The position numbers and the translations under genes are program-made. 64,000 bases of DNA from an uncultured Verrucomicrobiae bacterium (lineage in GTDB: Bacteria; Verrucomicrobiota; Verrucomicrobiia; Chthoniobacterales; UBA10450). The stretch lies in contig CAVSDR010000003.1 of assembly GCA_963726745.1 (NCBI GenBank), positions 1,088,001-1,152,000 on the forward strand. Reading direction: 5' to 3'. Shown one piece after another: positions 26,732 through 32,760 of this stretch (position 1 is the first letter of the stretch; every line of letters starts with the position of its first letter). Below the pieces are notes generated by a model that made no database searches, was not told the DNA's origin, and was given only the letters and a program-made list of their open reading frames with translations.

Positions 26732-27660
26732 CGATGCGCTGGAACCGCAAAGACCTGCTCGGCATCCGCGAGCTCTCCGCGGAGGAGATCACTTTCGTGC
26801 TCGATACCGCCGATGCCTTCAAGCAAGTGGGCACGCGCGAGGTCAAGAAAGTGCCGGCGCTGCGCGGGAAGACGCTGGTTAATTTTTTCGTCGAGCCGAG
26901 CACGCGCACCCGCACTTCTTTCGAACTCGCGGCCACGCGCCTGAGCGCGGATGTGATCAACATCTCGGCCACGAGCAGCAGCCTAACGAAAGGTGAAACC
27001 CTCAAGGACACGGCCAAGGTGCTCGAGGCTTACCATGCGGATCTCATTGTCCTGCGGCACAGCTCCGCAGGCGCCGCGCAGTTTCTCGGTGAACGCCTGC
27101 GCTCGAGCGTGATCAACGCCGGCGATGGCGCGCACGAGCATCCCACACAGGCGCTGCTCGACCTTTACACCATCCGCGAACGCCGCGGCCGCATCGCGGG
27201 ATTACACGTCGCGATCGTGGGCGACATCCTCTTCAGCCGCGTGGCCCGTTCGAACATCTTCGCCCTGCTCAAGCTCGGCGCGCGCGTCACCCTGGTCGGC
27301 CCGAGCACGCTCGTGCCGCGCGTTTTCGAGCGCCTCGGCGTCACCGTCTCGCACTCGCTCGATGACATCCTGCCGACGGTCGATGTGATCAATCTCCTGC
27401 GCATTCAGCATGAGCGGCAGCGGAAGGAATACTTCCCCGGCCTGGGCGAATACATCCGGCTTTTTGGCCTAACGAAGCGTCGCGCGGAGCGTCTCCCGCC
27501 CGAGTGCTTGATCATGCATCCCGGCCCGATCAACCGCGGCGTGGAAATAGACAGCGACCTGGCCGATGGCGCGCAAAGCGTCATCCTCGACCAGGTGACC
27601 AATGGCCTGGCCGTGCGCATGGCCGTGCTCTATCTCTGCGGCGGCATTTCCACCCGATGA
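26728..27660 (+). CDS. pyrB: Aspartate carbamoyltransferase catalytic subunit
   Basis: [43 protein letters not shown]. Confidence 0.97.
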
Positions 27661-28925
27661 AAACTCTCCTGCGCAACGGCCGCATCATCGACCCGGCGAA
27701 CGGCCGGGATGAGATCGGCGACCTCCTGCTGGTCGATGGCAGGATCGGTGACGGCGATCCCGCGGGCGCGGAAGTGATCGAGGCCACGGGGCTGGTCGTC
27801 GCCCCGGGCTTGATCGACATCCATGTGCATTTCCGCGAGCCGGGCTTCGGCTGGAAGGAAACGATCGAATCCGGCGCGCGCGCGGCGGCGGCGGGCGGTT
27901 TCACCACCGTCGTCTGCATGCCGAACACCTCGCCTGTGGCCGACAGCCCGGCGACGATCGCGTGGATCAGGGATCGTGCCGCGGAGGTCGCATGCGTGAA
28001 TGTTTTGCCCTCCGGCGCGATCACGAAAAATCTCGCCGGCGAAGAGCTCGCACCGCTCGGCGCGCTCGCGCAGGCGGGGGTGGTCGCGCTCACGGATGAC
28101 GGCCATTGCGTGCAGAATAACGAGCTTATGCGCCGCGCGGTGGAGTATGCCCGCATGGTCGGCCTGCCGCTGCTGGATCATTGCCAGGATTACCAACTCG
28201 TCGGCGATGGGGTGGTGCATGAAGGCTATTGGAGCACGCTCCTGGGCCTGCCTGGCTGGCCGGCGGCAGGCGAGGAAATGATCGTCGCGCGCAACATCTT
28301 GCTGGCTGAACTCTGCGATCATCAGATCCATTGCCAGCACATCAGCGCCGCGGGAAGCGTGCGATTATTGCGCGAAGCGCGCGCCCGCGGGGTCAAGATC
28401 AGCGGCGAAGTTTGCCCGCACCATCTGGCGTTGACTGACGAAGCGATCCAGAACTTCGACACGAATTACAAAATGAATCCGCCGCTGCGGACGCGCGCGG
28501 ACATCGAGGCGCTGCTCGCGGGTTTGGCCGATGGCACGCTCGACATCCTCGCGAGCGACCATGCGCCGCACGCGAAATTTGAAAAGGAGCGCGAGTTCGA
28601 CCAGGCGCCCTTCGGCATTCTCGGCCTGGAGACGGAGCTGGGGCTTTTCCTCGACTTGCTGGTGCACAAAACCAGGACGCTCGAGCTGCCGCAAGTGATC
28701 GCCATGTTGACGGCTAATCCGGCGCGCCTTTTGAAATTAGCCAGCGGGACGTTAAGCCCCGGCGCGGTCGCCGATGTGACCCTGATCGATCCCGAGCTCG
28801 AGTGGACCGTGGACGCCGGGGAATCAGCCAGCCTCTCGTGCAACACGCCTTTCCACGGCTGGCAGCTCAAGGGCCGCGCGGTGCGCACGATCGTCGCCGG
28901 GAAGACGGTCTGGGAATTGCCCTAG
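27657..28925 (+). CDS. pyrC: Dihydroorotase
   Basis: [35 protein letters not shown]. Confidence 0.96.
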
Positions 28926-28947
28926 GCCGCGCGTGACCTTCGCGGGC

Positions 28948-28977
28948 AAAAAAAAGCGCGACCATCGCTGGTCGCGC
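28948..28977 (-). terminator. Intrinsic terminator of sRNA copy 1
   Basis: Perfect 9-bp stem, 4-nt loop, 8 T on the minus strand. Confidence 0.85.
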
Positions 28978-29027
28978 TGCGGAAGCTAAGGAGATGTTAG
29001 TTTTAGTTGGTGACTCCCAGTTCGCAG
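28948..29027 (-). ncRNA. Putative sigma54-dependent sRNA, copy 1
   Basis: CUGCGAACUGGGAG-UCACCAACUAAAACUAACAU-CUCCUUAGCUUCCGCAG stem-loop, then the terminator GCGCGACCA-gcga-UGGUCGCGC-U8; near-identical to 30679-30759. Confidence 0.72.
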
Positions 29028-29036
29028 GTTCTTCTT

Positions 29037-29053
29037 TAGCAATGGCGGTGCCA
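29037..29053 (-). promoter_or_regulatory. Sigma54 promoter of sRNA copy 1
   Basis: TGGCAC-CGCCA-TTGCTA, a consensus match; +1 predicted at 29027. Confidence 0.8.
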
Positions 29054-29117
29054 CGGCCGCGGCTGCGGGAATCTTTTTCGATAAAACTGTCAACGCCCTC
29101 AGCTTCGATTCCTTGGT

Positions 29118-29297
29118 ATGGACTCAAGCAATAAAGACAAAGCCGAAGGCAAGTTCGACCAGGCCGCCGGCGCGGTGAAGCAGAAGGCCGGTGAGCTGAC
29201 CGGCAACAAGGAGCTCGAAGCCAAAGGCGCCGCGCAGAATGTGGCCGGCCACGTCGAGGAGAAGACGGGCGACGTGAAGAAAGTCTTCGGCAAATAA
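29118..29297 (+). CDS. csbD: CsbD family stress protein (59 aa, below ORF-track cutoff)
   Basis: MDSSNKDKAEGKFDQAAGAVKQKAGELTGNKELEAKGAAQNVAGHVEEKTGDVKKVFGK*. Confidence 0.9.
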   Translation: MDSSNKDKAEGKFDQAAGAVKQKAGELTGNKELEAKGAAQNVAGHVEEKTGDVKKVFGK

Positions 29298-29309
29298 CCG
29301 ATAAAATAA

Positions 29310-29343
29310 GAAGCGCTGCGTCCCATCCGGAACGCAGCGCTTC
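29310..29343. terminator. Hairpin between convergent genes (probably bidirectional terminator)
   Basis: GAAGCGCTGCGT...ACGCAGCGCTTC 12-bp stem. Confidence 0.7.
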
Positions 29344-29368
29344 GCTTCTCTAGCAGCGGAGCGTGGGT

Positions 29369-30613
29369 CTACTCCTCGCCGCCGTCGTCGTCGCTTCCAC
29401 CGTCATCGCCGCCGTCGTCACCGCCATCATCATCCCCACCCTCGTCGTCACTGCCGCCATCATCGTCGTCTTCGCCGTCTCCGTCGAAGTCCTGGCCGTC
29501 ATCGTCCGAATCGTCCTCCATGCTCTCCTCGTCCGCGCTGTCGTCTGATTCCACGGATTCATCGCTGTCCTCTTCGACCGCCACTTCTTCCTGCTCTTCC
29601 GCGCTCATTTCGAAGGATTCGGTCTCGGCAAAGCTTTCCTCCGCTTCCATTTCCTCGGTGCTGATCTCCTCGGAGATTTCGATGTCCTCGCTTACTTCGA
29701 GTTCCACCGCGGTTTCCGTTTCGCTCCACTCATAGCTTTCCTCGGTGGTGAACTCGGTGGAAGTCGACTCCCACTCGCTGGTGTAAGTGGAAACTTCGAT
29801 CCACTCGCTGCGGTCGGCGCTGTTGACGTAATAATCGTAGCCGTAAAGCATGCCCTCGATCTCATCGATGAGGTAAAGCGTGGAAGTAAGTGCCGCCACG
29901 GTGAAGGGCGCGTCCACGATCCGACGCGCATCGTGCTTCATTTTCTTGATGCCCTTCAGCAGCGCCTTGTCCTTGCCCGCTTTCTTTTCCATCTGGTCGA
30001 GCTTCGCGATCAGCGCCTTTTGCTGCGCCTTCAGCTTCTCAAACTCGGCTTTTTCCTTGGCGCTTAACTCGCCGCCTTTTTTCCGGCGCGCTGCTTCCTT
30101 CGAGTAATCCGTCCGCAGGACGGCGAGCGCGTGGCCCATCTTCTTGCTCGCCTCGACCACCTTCTTGTTCTTCGAATCGGTCAGCTCCCAGGCAATGGCC
30201 ATTTGCTTGTCCGCGGTGCGCGCGTCGCTGATCCCGAGGAAGAAATCGTTGCTCTTTGCCTCGAGGCCTTTTTGCGCGCGATCAATCGCCTTGGAAACCT
30301 TTTGCACCGACTTCCAGAACGGCTTGTTCTTCGCCGTTTTCGGATCGAGCCCCTGGTCGGCGCGGGCTTCTTTGATCATAAGAGCCAGCGCTTTGTTCGC
30401 CTTGGTCAGGAGTTCCCTGGCATTCGCTTTCTTGCCGCTGAGCTTCTTCTCCTTCTTCCCTTTCTTGTGCGTCTTTTTCGCTTCGCCGCTCTTGGCTTTC
30501 GCTTCGGCGGCCGCGCCGTGGGCGGTTAGGATAAGGCTGCGTTCCATTCCGAACCCGATGAGCACGGAGCACAGGGCGAGTCGGACCAATAAATTCGATT
30601 TTCGTTTGAGCAT
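29369..30613 (-). CDS. Secreted hypothetical protein, Lys-rich N-terminal half and long Asp/Glu-rich tail
   Basis: Signal-like N-terminus, helical K/A-rich body, ~135-aa acidic tail ending in DDGGDDGG repeats. Confidence 0.75.
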   Translation of the reverse strand: MLKRKSNLLVRLALCSVLIGFGMERSLILTAHGAAAEAKAKSGEAKKTHKKGKKEKKLSGKKANARELLTKANKALALMIKEARADQGLDPKTAKNKPFWKSVQKVSKAIDRAQKGLEAKSNDFFLGISDARTADKQMAIAWELTDSKNKKVVEASKKMGHALAVLRTDYSKEAARRKKGGELSAKEKAEFEKLKAQQKALIAKLDQMEKKAGKDKALLKGIKKMKHDARRIVDAPFTVAALTSTLYLIDEIEGMLYGYDYYVNSADRSEWIEVSTYTSEWESTSTEFTTEESYEWSETETAVELEVSEDIEISEEISTEEMEAEESFAETESFEMSAEEQEEVAVEEDSDESVESDDSADEESMEDDSDDDGQDFDGDGEDDDDGGSDDEGGDDDGGDDGGDDGGSDDDGGEE

Positions 30614-30678
30614 GCGCGGCCCACCGTAGCAGACGGGACGCGGTTTACTGCATAATTCGCCGGGCGATGCTCCCGGGC

Positions 30679-30759
30679 AAAAAATAAGCGCGACCATCAC
30701 TGGTCGCGCTGCGGAAGCTAAGGAGATAAGTTAGATAGTTGGTGACTCCCAGTTCGCAG
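30679..30759 (-). ncRNA. Putative sigma54-dependent sRNA, copy 2
   Basis: Same stem and terminator as copy 1; differences are confined to the loops and the U-tract. Confidence 0.72.
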
Positions 30760-30768
30760 CTCTTCTTA

Positions 30769-30785
30769 TAGCAGCCACGGTGCCA
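30769..30785 (-). promoter_or_regulatory. Sigma54 promoter of sRNA copy 2
   Basis: TGGCAC-CGTGG-CTGCTA; +1 predicted at 30759, the same base as in copy 1. Confidence 0.75.
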
Positions 30786-30809
30786 CGGCTTCCGAACCGC
30801 GAGAAAAAA

Positions 30810-32669
30810 CTACGTCTTGCCGGCAAAACTTTCCCACTCGGCGGTCACGCGTTCGAGTTCGGCCGCCACCCCGAGAAGCTCGCGGTTTAACTCCATCGCG
30901 TTTCCTCCGGCGTCGTAGGTTTCCGGCTTTTCCAACTGGGCGGTTAGTTCTTTCTGCCGGCCCTCCAGGGAAAGGATATGCATCTCGAGCTCGCGCGCTT
31001 TTTGTTCGTGCTCGCGCCTGGCTTTCGCTTCGGCCTTGCGCTGCTCGGCCTCGGCCCGGCGCAGTTGTTTCACTTCGCGCAGGCTCAGGTTTTCCGTCGA
31101 AGCGCTCGCCGCGGGTGCTTTCGGCGCGGTCGTCGGTTGCGCATTGCTCAAGGTCGTTCCGCTGGTCAGCGCGGCGCGCGCGGAAGTGGCGCGGGATTTA
31201 TCGAGGTAATAATCGTAGTCGCCCGCGTAGGGCGTGAGCTGGCCGGCGCTGATGTGCAGGACGCTCTTCGCGACGGCGCGGATGAAATAAACGTCGTGGC
31301 TGATGAAAATGAGCGTGCCTTCGTATTGCGCGAGCGCGCCGACGAGGGCGTCGATGCTGCCGATGTCGAGGTGCGTCGTCGGCTCGTCCATCAAGAGGAG
31401 GTTCGGCGGATCCAGCAGCAACTTCACCAGGGCGAGGCGCGTCTTTTCGCCGCCGCTGAGGACGGCGGTCGTTTTGAAAACGTCGTCTCCGCGGAAAAGG
31501 AAGGAGCCGAGGACGGTGCGCGCGGTTTGTTCCGAGACCGGGTTCGGCATGTCGCGCGCGGTGTCGAGCACGGTCATCATCGGCTGCAGCATCTCCACGC
31601 GGTGCTGCGCGAAGTAGCCGATCTTGACGTTGTGCCCGGGCTCGCGCGTCCCGCTTTGCACCGGGAGAACGCCGGCGAGGAGCTTGAGCAAAGTCGATTT
31701 GCCGGCGCCATTCGGGCCGACGAGGACGGTGCGCTGTCCGCGTTCAGCCTCGAAGTCTAACGACTCGTAAACCACGTGCTCGCCGTAGGCGTGGCGCACG
31801 TTCTCGAGCTTGATCACGCGATGCCCGCTGCGCGGCGGCTGCGGGAAGTGAAAGTGAACCGTCTTCTCGCGCGAGACCGGCGCCTCGATCTTCTCCATCC
31901 GGTCGATTTGCTTCAGTTTGCTTTGCGCCTGCGACGCTTTGCTTGCCTTCGCGCGGAACCGATCGGCGAAGGCCTGGAGCGATTGGATTTCCTTCTGCTG
32001 ATTCTTGTAAGCAGCGGCGTGCTGCTCTTCGCGCGCGGCTTTCTGCTCGACGTAGCTGTCCCAGTTTCCGCGGTAACGCGCGAGCCGCTTGTGCGCGATC
32101 TCGATGATCGAGCCGACGAGCTGGTTCAGGAACTCGCGATCGTGCGAGATCATGAGGATCGCGCCCGGATAGCTCTTCAAATATTCCTGAAACCAGACGA
32201 GCGACTCGAGGTCGAGGTGGTTGGTTGGTTCGTCGAGCAGCAACAAGTCCGGCTCCATCACGAGCAGCCGCGCGAGATGCGCGCGCATGATCCAGCCGCC
32301 GCTCAGTTCGCGCGCAGGGCGGTCGAAATCGCTCTCGCGAAAGGCGAGCCCGCTCAGGATCCGTTTCGCTTTCGGCTCGGTCTCCCAGTCGCTGTGCTCG
32401 TCGTAGTCGCCGCAGGCGAGCTTGAGCACGGTTTCCTCGCCGACGCTCGCGGTCTCCTGCGGGAGGAAGCCGAGCGTGGCCGATTTCTCGATCGAGACCT
32501 TGCCCTCGTCCGGCGAGGCCTCGCCGAGGATGAGCGAGAAAAGGGTCGACTTCCCCGCGCCGTTCGGGCCGACGAGCCCGATGCGATCGCCGCGATTCAC
32601 CTGCAACGACGCATCCTCAAAAAGGGTGCGCCCGGCGAAGGCTTTCGAGACTTGGGAAATGGTGAGCAT
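30810..32669 (-). CDS. ABC-F family ATPase with C-terminal coiled coil
   Basis: Two GPNGAGKST/LSGG/DEPT cassettes, no TM segment, RFRAKASKA linker. Confidence 0.93.
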   Translation of the reverse strand: MLTISQVSKAFAGRTLFEDASLQVNRGDRIGLVGPNGAGKSTLFSLILGEASPDEGKVSIEKSATLGFLPQETASVGEETVLKLACGDYDEHSDWETEPKAKRILSGLAFRESDFDRPARELSGGWIMRAHLARLLVMEPDLLLLDEPTNHLDLESLVWFQEYLKSYPGAILMISHDREFLNQLVGSIIEIAHKRLARYRGNWDSYVEQKAAREEQHAAAYKNQQKEIQSLQAFADRFRAKASKASQAQSKLKQIDRMEKIEAPVSREKTVHFHFPQPPRSGHRVIKLENVRHAYGEHVVYESLDFEAERGQRTVLVGPNGAGKSTLLKLLAGVLPVQSGTREPGHNVKIGYFAQHRVEMLQPMMTVLDTARDMPNPVSEQTARTVLGSFLFRGDDVFKTTAVLSGGEKTRLALVKLLLDPPNLLLMDEPTTHLDIGSIDALVGALAQYEGTLIFISHDVYFIRAVAKSVLHISAGQLTPYAGDYDYYLDKSRATSARAALTSGTTLSNAQPTTAPKAPAASASTENLSLREVKQLRRAEAEQRKAEAKARREHEQKARELEMHILSLEGRQKELTAQLEKPETYDAGGNAMELNRELLGVAAELERVTAEWESFAGKT

Positions 32670-32760
32670 TTTTGCGGGCGGGCAATGTCGCCAGCCACGC
32701 CCGTGGCGCAAGATTGCCGGCTGAAATTGCCGTCTCCCGGAAGCGGCCTTAAGGAAGCGA

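Follow-up and report, generated by a model that had tools for sequence, protein, structure and literature searches.

A 64,000-nt stretch of contig CAVSDR010000003.1 (positions 1,088,001 to 1,152,000; this whole stretch is called the window below, and plain coordinates refer to it), from an uncultured bacterium of the order Chthoniobacterales, contains two ~110-nt stretches on its minus strand, 29058..28948 and 30789..30680, that are 88% identical over 110 nt. A first-pass annotation had read them as twin small RNA (sRNA) genes dependent on the sigma factor sigma-54, and the question raised by the locus is whether such genes are present and, if so, how their products might act. The comparisons described here identify a real and previously undescribed RNA family, of a kind (the sigma-54-dependent sRNA) that is already known. 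Judging from the sequences, the family very probably consists of structured sRNA genes transcribed with sigma-54. The full reading, in which the RNAs are independent siblings, controlled by sigma-54 and a bacterial enhancer-binding protein (bEBP), that act in trans by base-pairing and independently of Hfq, is assigned a probability of roughly 0.55; transcription, action in trans, the pairing seed and the effect on targets are what we infer in this reading.

Anatomy of the two copies

The two copies are composed of the following parts, in which the bit scores refer to the covariance model (CM) introduced below.

29053..28948, minus strand: copy 1, promoter-to-terminator unit (sigma-54 promoter, imperfect stem-loop with a G-poor loop, intrinsic terminator)
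29037..29053, minus strand: copy 1, sigma-54 promoter (TGGCAC at 29053..29048 as the -24 element, a 5-nt spacer, and TTGCTA as the -12 element, with the -12 C at 29039)
28948..29027, minus strand: copy 1, predicted RNA of 80 nt, from the predicted transcription start (+1) at 29027 to the end of the U-tract at 28948; 84.8 bits
~29025..28979, minus strand: copy 1, stem-loop 1, with a 20-nt G-poor loop
28955..28978, minus strand: copy 1, intrinsic terminator hairpin of 10 pairs (7 G-C), then T8; consensus scan and fold
30785..30680, minus strand: copy 2, promoter-to-terminator unit (sigma-54 promoter, imperfect stem-loop with a G-poor loop, intrinsic terminator)
30769..30785, minus strand: copy 2, sigma-54 promoter (TGGCAC, a 5-nt spacer, and CTGCTA, with the -12 C at 30771)
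30680..30759, minus strand: copy 2, predicted RNA of 80 nt, with the predicted +1 at 30759; 80.5 bits
30687..30710, minus strand: copy 2, intrinsic terminator hairpin of 10 pairs (7 G-C), then TATTTTTT; consensus scan and fold

The repeated promoter, stem-loop and terminator element is confirmed at these coordinates, on this strand and with this anatomy, as the first-pass annotation had described it. The +1 was predicted by counting 12 nt from the -12 C, and unbroken identity between the copies starts exactly at that distance, at 29027 and 30759, the two bases that had been proposed earlier. The copies differ in the promoter spacer, the base before the -12 GC, positions -11 to -1, the mid-loop, one base of the terminator loop and the U-tract; the arms are the same in both, and the mid-loop has diverged. 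In the predicted fold of each 80-nt RNA, an imperfect stem of 12 pairs closes a 20-nt loop and the terminator comes after it (minimum free energy -28.2 kcal/mol, z ~ -3.9), and shuffled sequences folded as well in 0/200 cases for copy 1 and in 1/200 for copy 2.

The impression that the RNA belongs to no recognised family was borne out by Rfam, which gave no family above its gathering threshold in 28000-31500 at a permissive E <= 10 and none at the gathering score in the whole window. The best sub-threshold matches were ncS025 (Burkholderia sRNA 25; 22.9 bits against a gathering threshold of 46), the Betaproteobacteria toxic sRNA (22.5 against 50) and mmgR (21.3 against 41), and membership in these families was rejected on account of such scores. 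The first two share with the present RNA a UCUCC-type pyrimidine stretch, a G+C-rich terminator and a U-run; however, only the 3' half aligns and they come from another phylum, so that the likeness does not amount to membership.

Family, conserved structure and promoter

Of the 151 genomes of the taxonomic family, 54, spread over 21 of 36 genera, gave matches in a BLAST search with the 111-nt element, mostly to its 3' half. Thirty-one homologs, cut at the +1 predicted from their promoters, were aligned by MAFFT without regard to structure (alignment A2), and a CM, R1, was built from the transcribed part of A2 only, with the promoter columns excluded. R1 matched 87/151 genomes of the taxonomic family (63/99 of the high-quality genomes; 25/36 genera), with one to four copies each. 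The BLAST, family-level R1 and rpoN tallies include four genomes flagged as unpublished (G150, G002, G007 and G136), and row L004 of A2 comes from G150; no conclusion rests on these genomes. In the genome that holds the window, R1 also found a further copy:

G000:C2:245181-245270 (locus L044, 1501-1590), minus strand, outside the window: third copy; R1 49.8 bits, E 1.4e-8

This copy is divergent, lies on another contig and has its own TGGCAC-N5-CTGCT promoter; a DUF892 (YciE/F-like) gene is found ~1 kb away. The earlier description of the RNAs as twins was therefore right as to the two window copies and incomplete otherwise, since the third copy and a second subfamily had been missed. Across the family the RNA is 77-95 nt long and occurs in three forms, namely a short-loop form of 77-85 nt (the window copies), a long-loop form of ~90-95 nt, and the second subfamily, which has a different terminator stem (GCGGGAYCAGAAAUGRUCCCGC), includes the third copy and coexists with the first subfamily in several genera. 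One relative carries tandem RNA genes 168 nt apart (L023 1499-1580 and 1667-1748, minus strand; the same as L094), each with a promoter and a terminator, and the tandem-bearing genome (G107) has four copies, including two matches 1.8 kb apart that both score 47.7 bits.

The range of the family is narrow. Within the same order, R1 matched 17/151 genomes, 10/15 within the own taxonomic family, and matches with a promoter in sister families came from three genomes of f8 and one genome of f5; the weakest order-level matches (f6 and f12; loci L060 and L062) have no promoter and were counted as false. Beyond the order, 1/150 other genomes of the phylum matched, and this single match (G399, 35.9 bits) was rejected as a terminator look-alike with no promoter, leaving no credible homolog outside the order in these 150 genomes. 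An exact promoter-plus-terminator pattern, run against ~185,000 species genomes, returned 58 stretches, all from metagenome-assembled genomes (MAGs), the titles of which name Chthoniobacterales, Chthoniobacter, Chthoniobacteraceae, Spartobacteria, Verrucomicrobiae or Verrucomicrobiota; the placement of the element in this order and phylum fits every one of these records. As far as the searched genomes indicate, the RNA family is lineage-specific and confined to Chthoniobacterales.

The structure was evaluated on two alignments. RNAalifold, applied to the MAFFT alignment, recovered the terminator only, because bulges misalign stem-loop 1, and a hand-written structure was therefore tested on A2. 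In that alignment, 90.7% of cells were paired (84.5% in stem-loop 1) against 36-44% in slid controls, 8/12 pairs of stem-loop 1 had changed on both sides, and 0/500 shuffles reached the observed value, both for paired cells and for the covariation score. In A3, a model-fitted alignment of 82 distinct sequences, 92.1% of cells were paired against 34-53% in slid controls, both sides had changed in 17/21 pairs, and 0/500 shuffles reached the observed values in any of the five measures. The terminator is paired in 98.9-99.2% of cells across homologs and covaries at three pairs, at which both sides changed in 18, 11 and 6 sequences of A3. The selection on structure suspected in the first pass is thus borne out by many homologs and by covariation in both helices: the structure is under selection. 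In addition, the G-G/C-C core of stem-loop 1 is nearly fixed (82 sequences; GC 78 and AU 2 at one pair, GC 64, GU 16 and CG 1 at the other), and the sequence of the terminator stem hardly changes from genus to genus, which suggests a constraint on sequence as well as on pairing in the helix core and the terminator.

The same data bear on the idea that the element is a repeated DNA element, like a repetitive extragenic palindrome (REP) or a miniature inverted-repeat transposable element (MITE), or else a DNA site for the sigma-54 holoenzyme that has no productive function, rather than an RNA gene. More than one occurrence per genome, and the tandem pair of one relative, would be in keeping with such an element. 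However, compensatory changes keep the RNA helices intact, which a function at the DNA level does not predict; promoter, helix and U-tract always have the same strandedness; no terminal inverted repeats exist beyond the palindrome of the terminator hairpin; and the element does not behave as a REP or MITE, in that only one to four copies are found per genome, at syntenic positions after an ABC-F gene or facing a conserved lipoprotein gene. The REP/MITE-like reading is largely refuted by the covariation, and the DNA-element explanation as a whole is extremely improbable. A coding function was also rejected, as an ATG is missing from the first 50 nt of 73/82 sequences and the longest open reading frame (ORF) has a median of 8.5 codons. 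From its sequence features, the RNA is predicted to be non-coding and independent of the neighbouring genes.

The promoter accompanies the RNA with similar regularity. Because the exact-pattern loci were preselected by their promoters, independent evidence comes from the sets found by BLAST and by the CM. The promoter [T/C]GGCA[C/T]-N5-NTGC[T/A] is present in 31/32 BLAST-found instances, and stands at the right distance in 19/21 matches of the promoter-free CM, the two without it being the weakest matches. The distance from the -12 C to the start of the model match is 10-14 nt in 81 of the 82 distinct instances and exactly 12 nt in 57 of them, the one instance without a promoter being L021; the homologs therefore keep the sigma-54 promoter at a fixed distance, in line with the first-pass proposal. 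In the genome of the window (3.4 Mb, 63.6% GC, 94.7% complete), the strict sigma-54 promoter pattern has only 19 matches, three of which belong to the RNA genes. Of the other 16, most are followed after 25-95 nt by a plausible protein start (prepilin-like N-termini, signal peptides), and the pattern can thus be taken to mark real sigma-54 promoters in this organism; no ORF follows the three RNA promoters. The other strict sites (G000:C5:155052 and C6:623535, both on the plus strand, and 14 more) precede genes of prepilin- or pseudopilin-like and secreted proteins, and provide a first sketch of the sigma-54 regulon of the organism. No sigma-70-type promoter was detected at the locus. An A/T-rich patch is located ~17-24 nt upstream of the -24 element (~29070-29077 and 30802-30809 in the window), with 60% A/T against a background of ~42%, and a run of at least five A/T occurs there in 54/80 loci compared with 26/80 in a control window; the signal is modest, and may reflect a bend or an IHF- or UP-like element.

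Sigma-54 promoters need sigma-54 and an ATP-dependent activator. Both kinds of protein had been expected from the first pass and are encoded in the genome: rpoN was found at 198 bits, together with six strong bEBPs (>200 bits), five with a REC-AAA-HTH_8 architecture and one PspF-like protein without a receiver domain. The rpoN gene lies ~2 kb from the gene of an NtrC-like bEBP of the L033 type (G000:C6:972601-976042), the orthogroup of which is present in 6/6 RNA carriers examined and missing from two genomes of the RNA-less genus g9. By contrast with these proteins, Hfq, CsrA and ProQ were not found in a six-frame hidden Markov model search of this 94.7% complete genome.

Proposed mode of action and its rivals

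The features of stem-loop 1 suggest how the RNAs might act. Its loop, 20-35 nt long across the family, is G-poor and rich in A, C and U (A 0.44, C 0.28, U 0.22 and G 0.07, in a genome of 63.6% GC), and the best-conserved part of it, ..(G/A)NCAC.. (..GUCAC..), directly follows the 5' arm. The 5' arm is purine-rich and resembles a Shine-Dalgarno (SD) sequence (AGCUAGGAA-type), and the 3' arm is pyrimidine-rich and resembles the anti-SD of 16S rRNA (UUCCUYAGCU-type). The 16S tail of the organism itself is GGAUCACCUCCUUUCU; the 3' arm of copy 3 carries UCACCUCC, which shares 8 identical nt with that tail, and in copies 1 and 2 there is UCACC at the start of the loop and CUCCUU in the 3' arm. A G-poor apical loop and an anti-SD-like stretch are typical of sRNAs that target ribosome-binding regions by pairing, and kissing that starts from a loop is common where Hfq is absent.

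A feasible model would be that the RNA genes are transcribed by sigma-54 RNA polymerase under the control of an enhancer-binding protein and that the transcripts end at the intrinsic terminator. Once the activator is switched on, the RNAs would pair with mRNAs through the unpaired loop, in particular its 5' part (..GUCAC..), and the anti-SD-like 3' arm might pair with ribosome-binding regions as well. The several copies of a genome would act as siblings, with common arms and diverged loops.

The closest functional analogues appear to be the sigma-54-dependent sibling sRNAs of Proteobacteria, namely Qrr as well as GlmY/GlmZ and CrcZ. The present RNAs resemble Qrr of Vibrio in being small RNA genes with their own sigma-54 promoter and, as predicted here, activation by an NtrC-type bEBP, in occurring as several partly redundant copies per genome (three here, one to four in relatives), and in having an intrinsic terminator on each. 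The dependence of the qrr genes on sigma-54 and a LuxO-type bEBP is described in three papers (PMC10162802; PMC3352281; PMC4878744). They differ in that no Qrr CM matched 28000-31500 at E <= 10 or any part of the window at the gathering score, and in that Vibrio belongs to a phylum other than that of the Chthoniobacterales carriers. Furthermore, Qrr has four stem-loops and works with Hfq, whereas the present RNA has one stem-loop and a terminator, and no hfq gene was found by the six-frame search. CrcZ and CrcY of Pseudomonas are sigma-54/CbrB-dependent protein sponges, and CrcZ, ~400 nt long, has several A-rich motifs that bind Hfq/Crc. The likeness lies in a sigma-54-dependent non-coding RNA with an A/C-rich unpaired sequence; by contrast, the RNAs studied here are 77-95 nt long with a single loop, have no Rfam match, and come from a genome in which Hfq and CsrA were not found. 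GlmY and GlmZ of enterobacteria are sibling sRNAs, some of them with sigma-54 promoters and a cognate NtrC-type activator, of which GlmY works by sequestering a protein and GlmZ by pairing that depends on Hfq; the present RNA differs from them in size and architecture and in having no Rfam match. Because no CM match was obtained, the architecture is different, Hfq was not found and the phylum is another, the family is a member of none of Qrr, GlmY/GlmZ and CrcZ. Searches of the literature on sRNAs of Verrucomicrobia (also in connection with sigma-54 or Hfq) or of Chthoniobacter, and on sigma-54-dependent sRNAs, gave no description of such an RNA, and the matches listed for sigma-54-dependent sRNAs all concern Proteobacteria by their titles.

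Several results weigh against the full reading. A search for RNA-seq runs containing 28900-30850 of the window listed none. On the side of the structure and the promoter, A3 was fitted to the model and leans towards its structure, and the 5' boundary of the model derives from an alignment cut at the promoter-predicted +1; both points tilt the evidence somewhat towards this reading. The unusual conservation of the terminator-stem sequence could point to recognition by a protein instead of pairing. The anti-SD noted in the 3' arm by the first-pass annotation is indeed present; however, it is base-paired in the predicted fold and so is not obviously free to pair. On the side of the activator, rpoN occurs in 145/151 genomes of the taxonomic family, including those that lack the RNA, and does not discriminate between them. 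No common activator site emerged when 260 nt of upstream sequence from each of the three own copies were compared, there being no shared k-mer of at least 10 nt beyond G+C-rich chance words. In a quick IQ-TREE comparison of five RNA-lacking and six RNA-carrying genomes, in which long branches were flagged, none of the bEBP orthogroups was distributed in step with the RNA. The L034-type bEBP (in only 1-2/6 RNA carriers) and the PspF-like L038-type bEBP (in only 2/6) were excluded as the activator; four candidate orthogroups remain (L033, L035, L036 and L037 types), and NCBIfam names none of them above its cut-off.

Searches for targets add to these points. A scan of duplex plus opening energies over 2905 heuristic gene starts gave no stand-out target, the best totals being weak (-8.5, -11.2 and -12.9 kcal/mol) and the duplexes unrealistically long. 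Motifs like the arms are not enriched near gene starts (9/337 within -60..+5, one of which is the RNA itself), and long complements of the seed occur at chance level when the antisense strands of the RNA genes themselves are set aside. The sole 12-nt perfect complement to the 3' arm lies in the 3' untranslated region (UTR) of a PilC/GspF-like gene (G000:C3:~67,470-67,560, minus strand), and was rejected as a target site, being away from a ribosome-binding site and about as frequent as chance expects. That 3' UTR (locus L176, ~970-1060) has several AGCU-N-GGAR motifs just before its terminator. The mRNA of a CsbD gene was likewise rejected as a target: its arm-like 5' stretch is part of a promoter-like motif in nine CsbD neighbours and represents a coincidence.

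The main rival of the pairing reading is a protein-binding RNA, that is, a sponge or decoy that would titrate an RNA-binding protein through its A/C-rich loop or its conserved terminator hairpin, in the manner of CrcZ or CsrB. The A/C-rich, G-poor loop, which in several homologs looks like runs of ACAAACAACA, would suit such a role, as would the G-G/C-C core of stem-loop 1, which almost never flips its orientation, and the near constancy of the terminator stem, which suggests sequence-specific recognition; the lack of a convincing mRNA target points the same way. However, each RNA has a single loop and not the repeated motifs typical of sponges, the mid-loop is poorly conserved even between the two adjacent copies, the terminator covaries at three pairs, and with Hfq, CsrA and ProQ not found there is no candidate partner. 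Taken together, a sponge or decoy appears possible, if rather unlikely.

It is also tempting to speculate that stem-loop 1 is a "self-masked anti-SD," in which the 3' arm mimics the 16S anti-SD and is kept shut by the SD mimic of the 5' arm, with sigma-54 controlling the RNA in an organism in which Hfq, CsrA and ProQ were not found. The stem would be opened by an initial kiss with the loop, or by a protein recognising the conserved terminator hairpin, whereupon the released anti-SD mimic would keep ribosomes from binding a set of mRNAs. This proposal is doubtful; if true, the family would be the hub of a post-transcriptional network in Chthoniobacterales that is either independent of chaperones or dependent on a new one.

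Genomic neighbourhood and significance

The genes around the two copies are as follows.

27504..28925, plus strand: amidohydrolase/dihydroorotase-like gene, convergent with copy 1, which ends 22 nt from its stop
29118..29297, plus strand: CsbD-family gene (Pfam), divergent from copy 1
29369..30613, minus strand: hypothetical secreted protein with an acidic tail, downstream of copy 2; own terminator at 29343..29310
30810..32711, minus strand: ABC-F ATPase gene (Pfam), directly upstream of copy 2 on the same strand

This arrangement allows a further explanation to be weighed, in which the RNA is a cis-acting leader or conditional terminator: the promoter would serve the downstream gene, and the stem-loop and terminator would form an attenuator or a riboswitch-like control of read-through. 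Copy 2 does sit 66 nt upstream of an ORF on the same strand, and in 34/82 loci the first heuristic ORF downstream shares the strand of the RNA. On the other hand, this ORF is on the opposite strand, converging on the RNA, in the remaining 48 (copy 1 and 47 others), and its family varies. For copy 1, the convergent dihydroorotase-like gene excludes the role of a 5' leader, as the first-pass annotation had concluded from the head-on orientation towards what it called pyrC. The same-strand downstream genes belong to unrelated families, and that of copy 2 is not conserved in relatives. Furthermore, the terminator is strong (9-10 mostly G-C pairs and T7-8), no conserved anti-terminator pairing is seen, and no cis-regulatory family of Rfam matches. 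A leader function is therefore very unlikely.

The recurrent neighbourhoods are syntenic anchors and not operons. In 17/82 distinct loci an ABC-F gene is immediately upstream of the RNA on the same strand, and within the genus this gene serves the family as an anchor of synteny. Long-loop variants of the RNA are followed, in 20/82 loci, by the convergent gene of a conserved ~150-aa lipoprotein (L019, L024-L029, L050, L056, L058, L072, L074, L077 and L079, e.g., L079:1644-2090:-; further L082, L084, L087, L093, L097 and L104). It has a signal peptide with a Cys and blocks with invariant Cys, His and Asp that resemble a cysteine-peptidase- or transglutaminase-like triad, and searches of Pfam and NCBIfam gave no match.

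CsbD genes are recurrent neighbours of the RNA in related genomes and adjoin it in nine loci. Upstream of these RNA-adjacent CsbD genes (29060-29117 on the plus strand of the window, and nine related loci) there is a two-block promoter-like motif, ..CACGACCT.. and, after ~17 nt, ..GCGTAT.., the end of which is ~10-15 nt from the ATG; an SD is not evident. The arrangement suggests that the CsbD transcript would be nearly leaderless and possibly transcribed with a sigma factor of the extracytoplasmic function (ECF) type. The secreted protein encoded at 29369-30613 on the minus strand (414 aa) is signal-like at its N-terminus, rich in K and E in its middle part and drawn out into a long acidic tail of D, E and G, for which imperfect codon repeats (families D1 and D7) code; neither Pfam nor NCBIfam matched it, and in comparison with related genomes its gene appears to have been inserted between the RNA gene and CsbD.

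Chthoniobacterales are abundant, mostly uncultured Verrucomicrobiota of soil and freshwater. To our knowledge, essentially nothing has been reported on their post-transcriptional regulation, and we know of almost no regulatory RNAs in the order. For the Planctomycetes-Verrucomicrobia-Chlamydiae group as a whole, a 2022 review tabulates 8 sRNA families, compared with 345 for Proteobacteria (PMC9029176). The computational definition of the present family is unusually complete, comprising a promoter that names its sigma factor, a predicted +1, a covarying structure, a terminator, paralogous subfamilies and a clear range, and it therefore offers an immediately testable entry point. The family is suited to submission to Rfam as a new one, and the RNA could serve in metatranscriptomes as a marker of the activity of the sigma-54 regulon. 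It would represent a predicted RNA output of sigma-54/bEBP signaling in organisms that seemingly do without Hfq, CsrA and ProQ. The main interest of the finding lies in this well-defined entry into RNA regulation and sigma-54 signaling in an understudied and mostly uncultured order.

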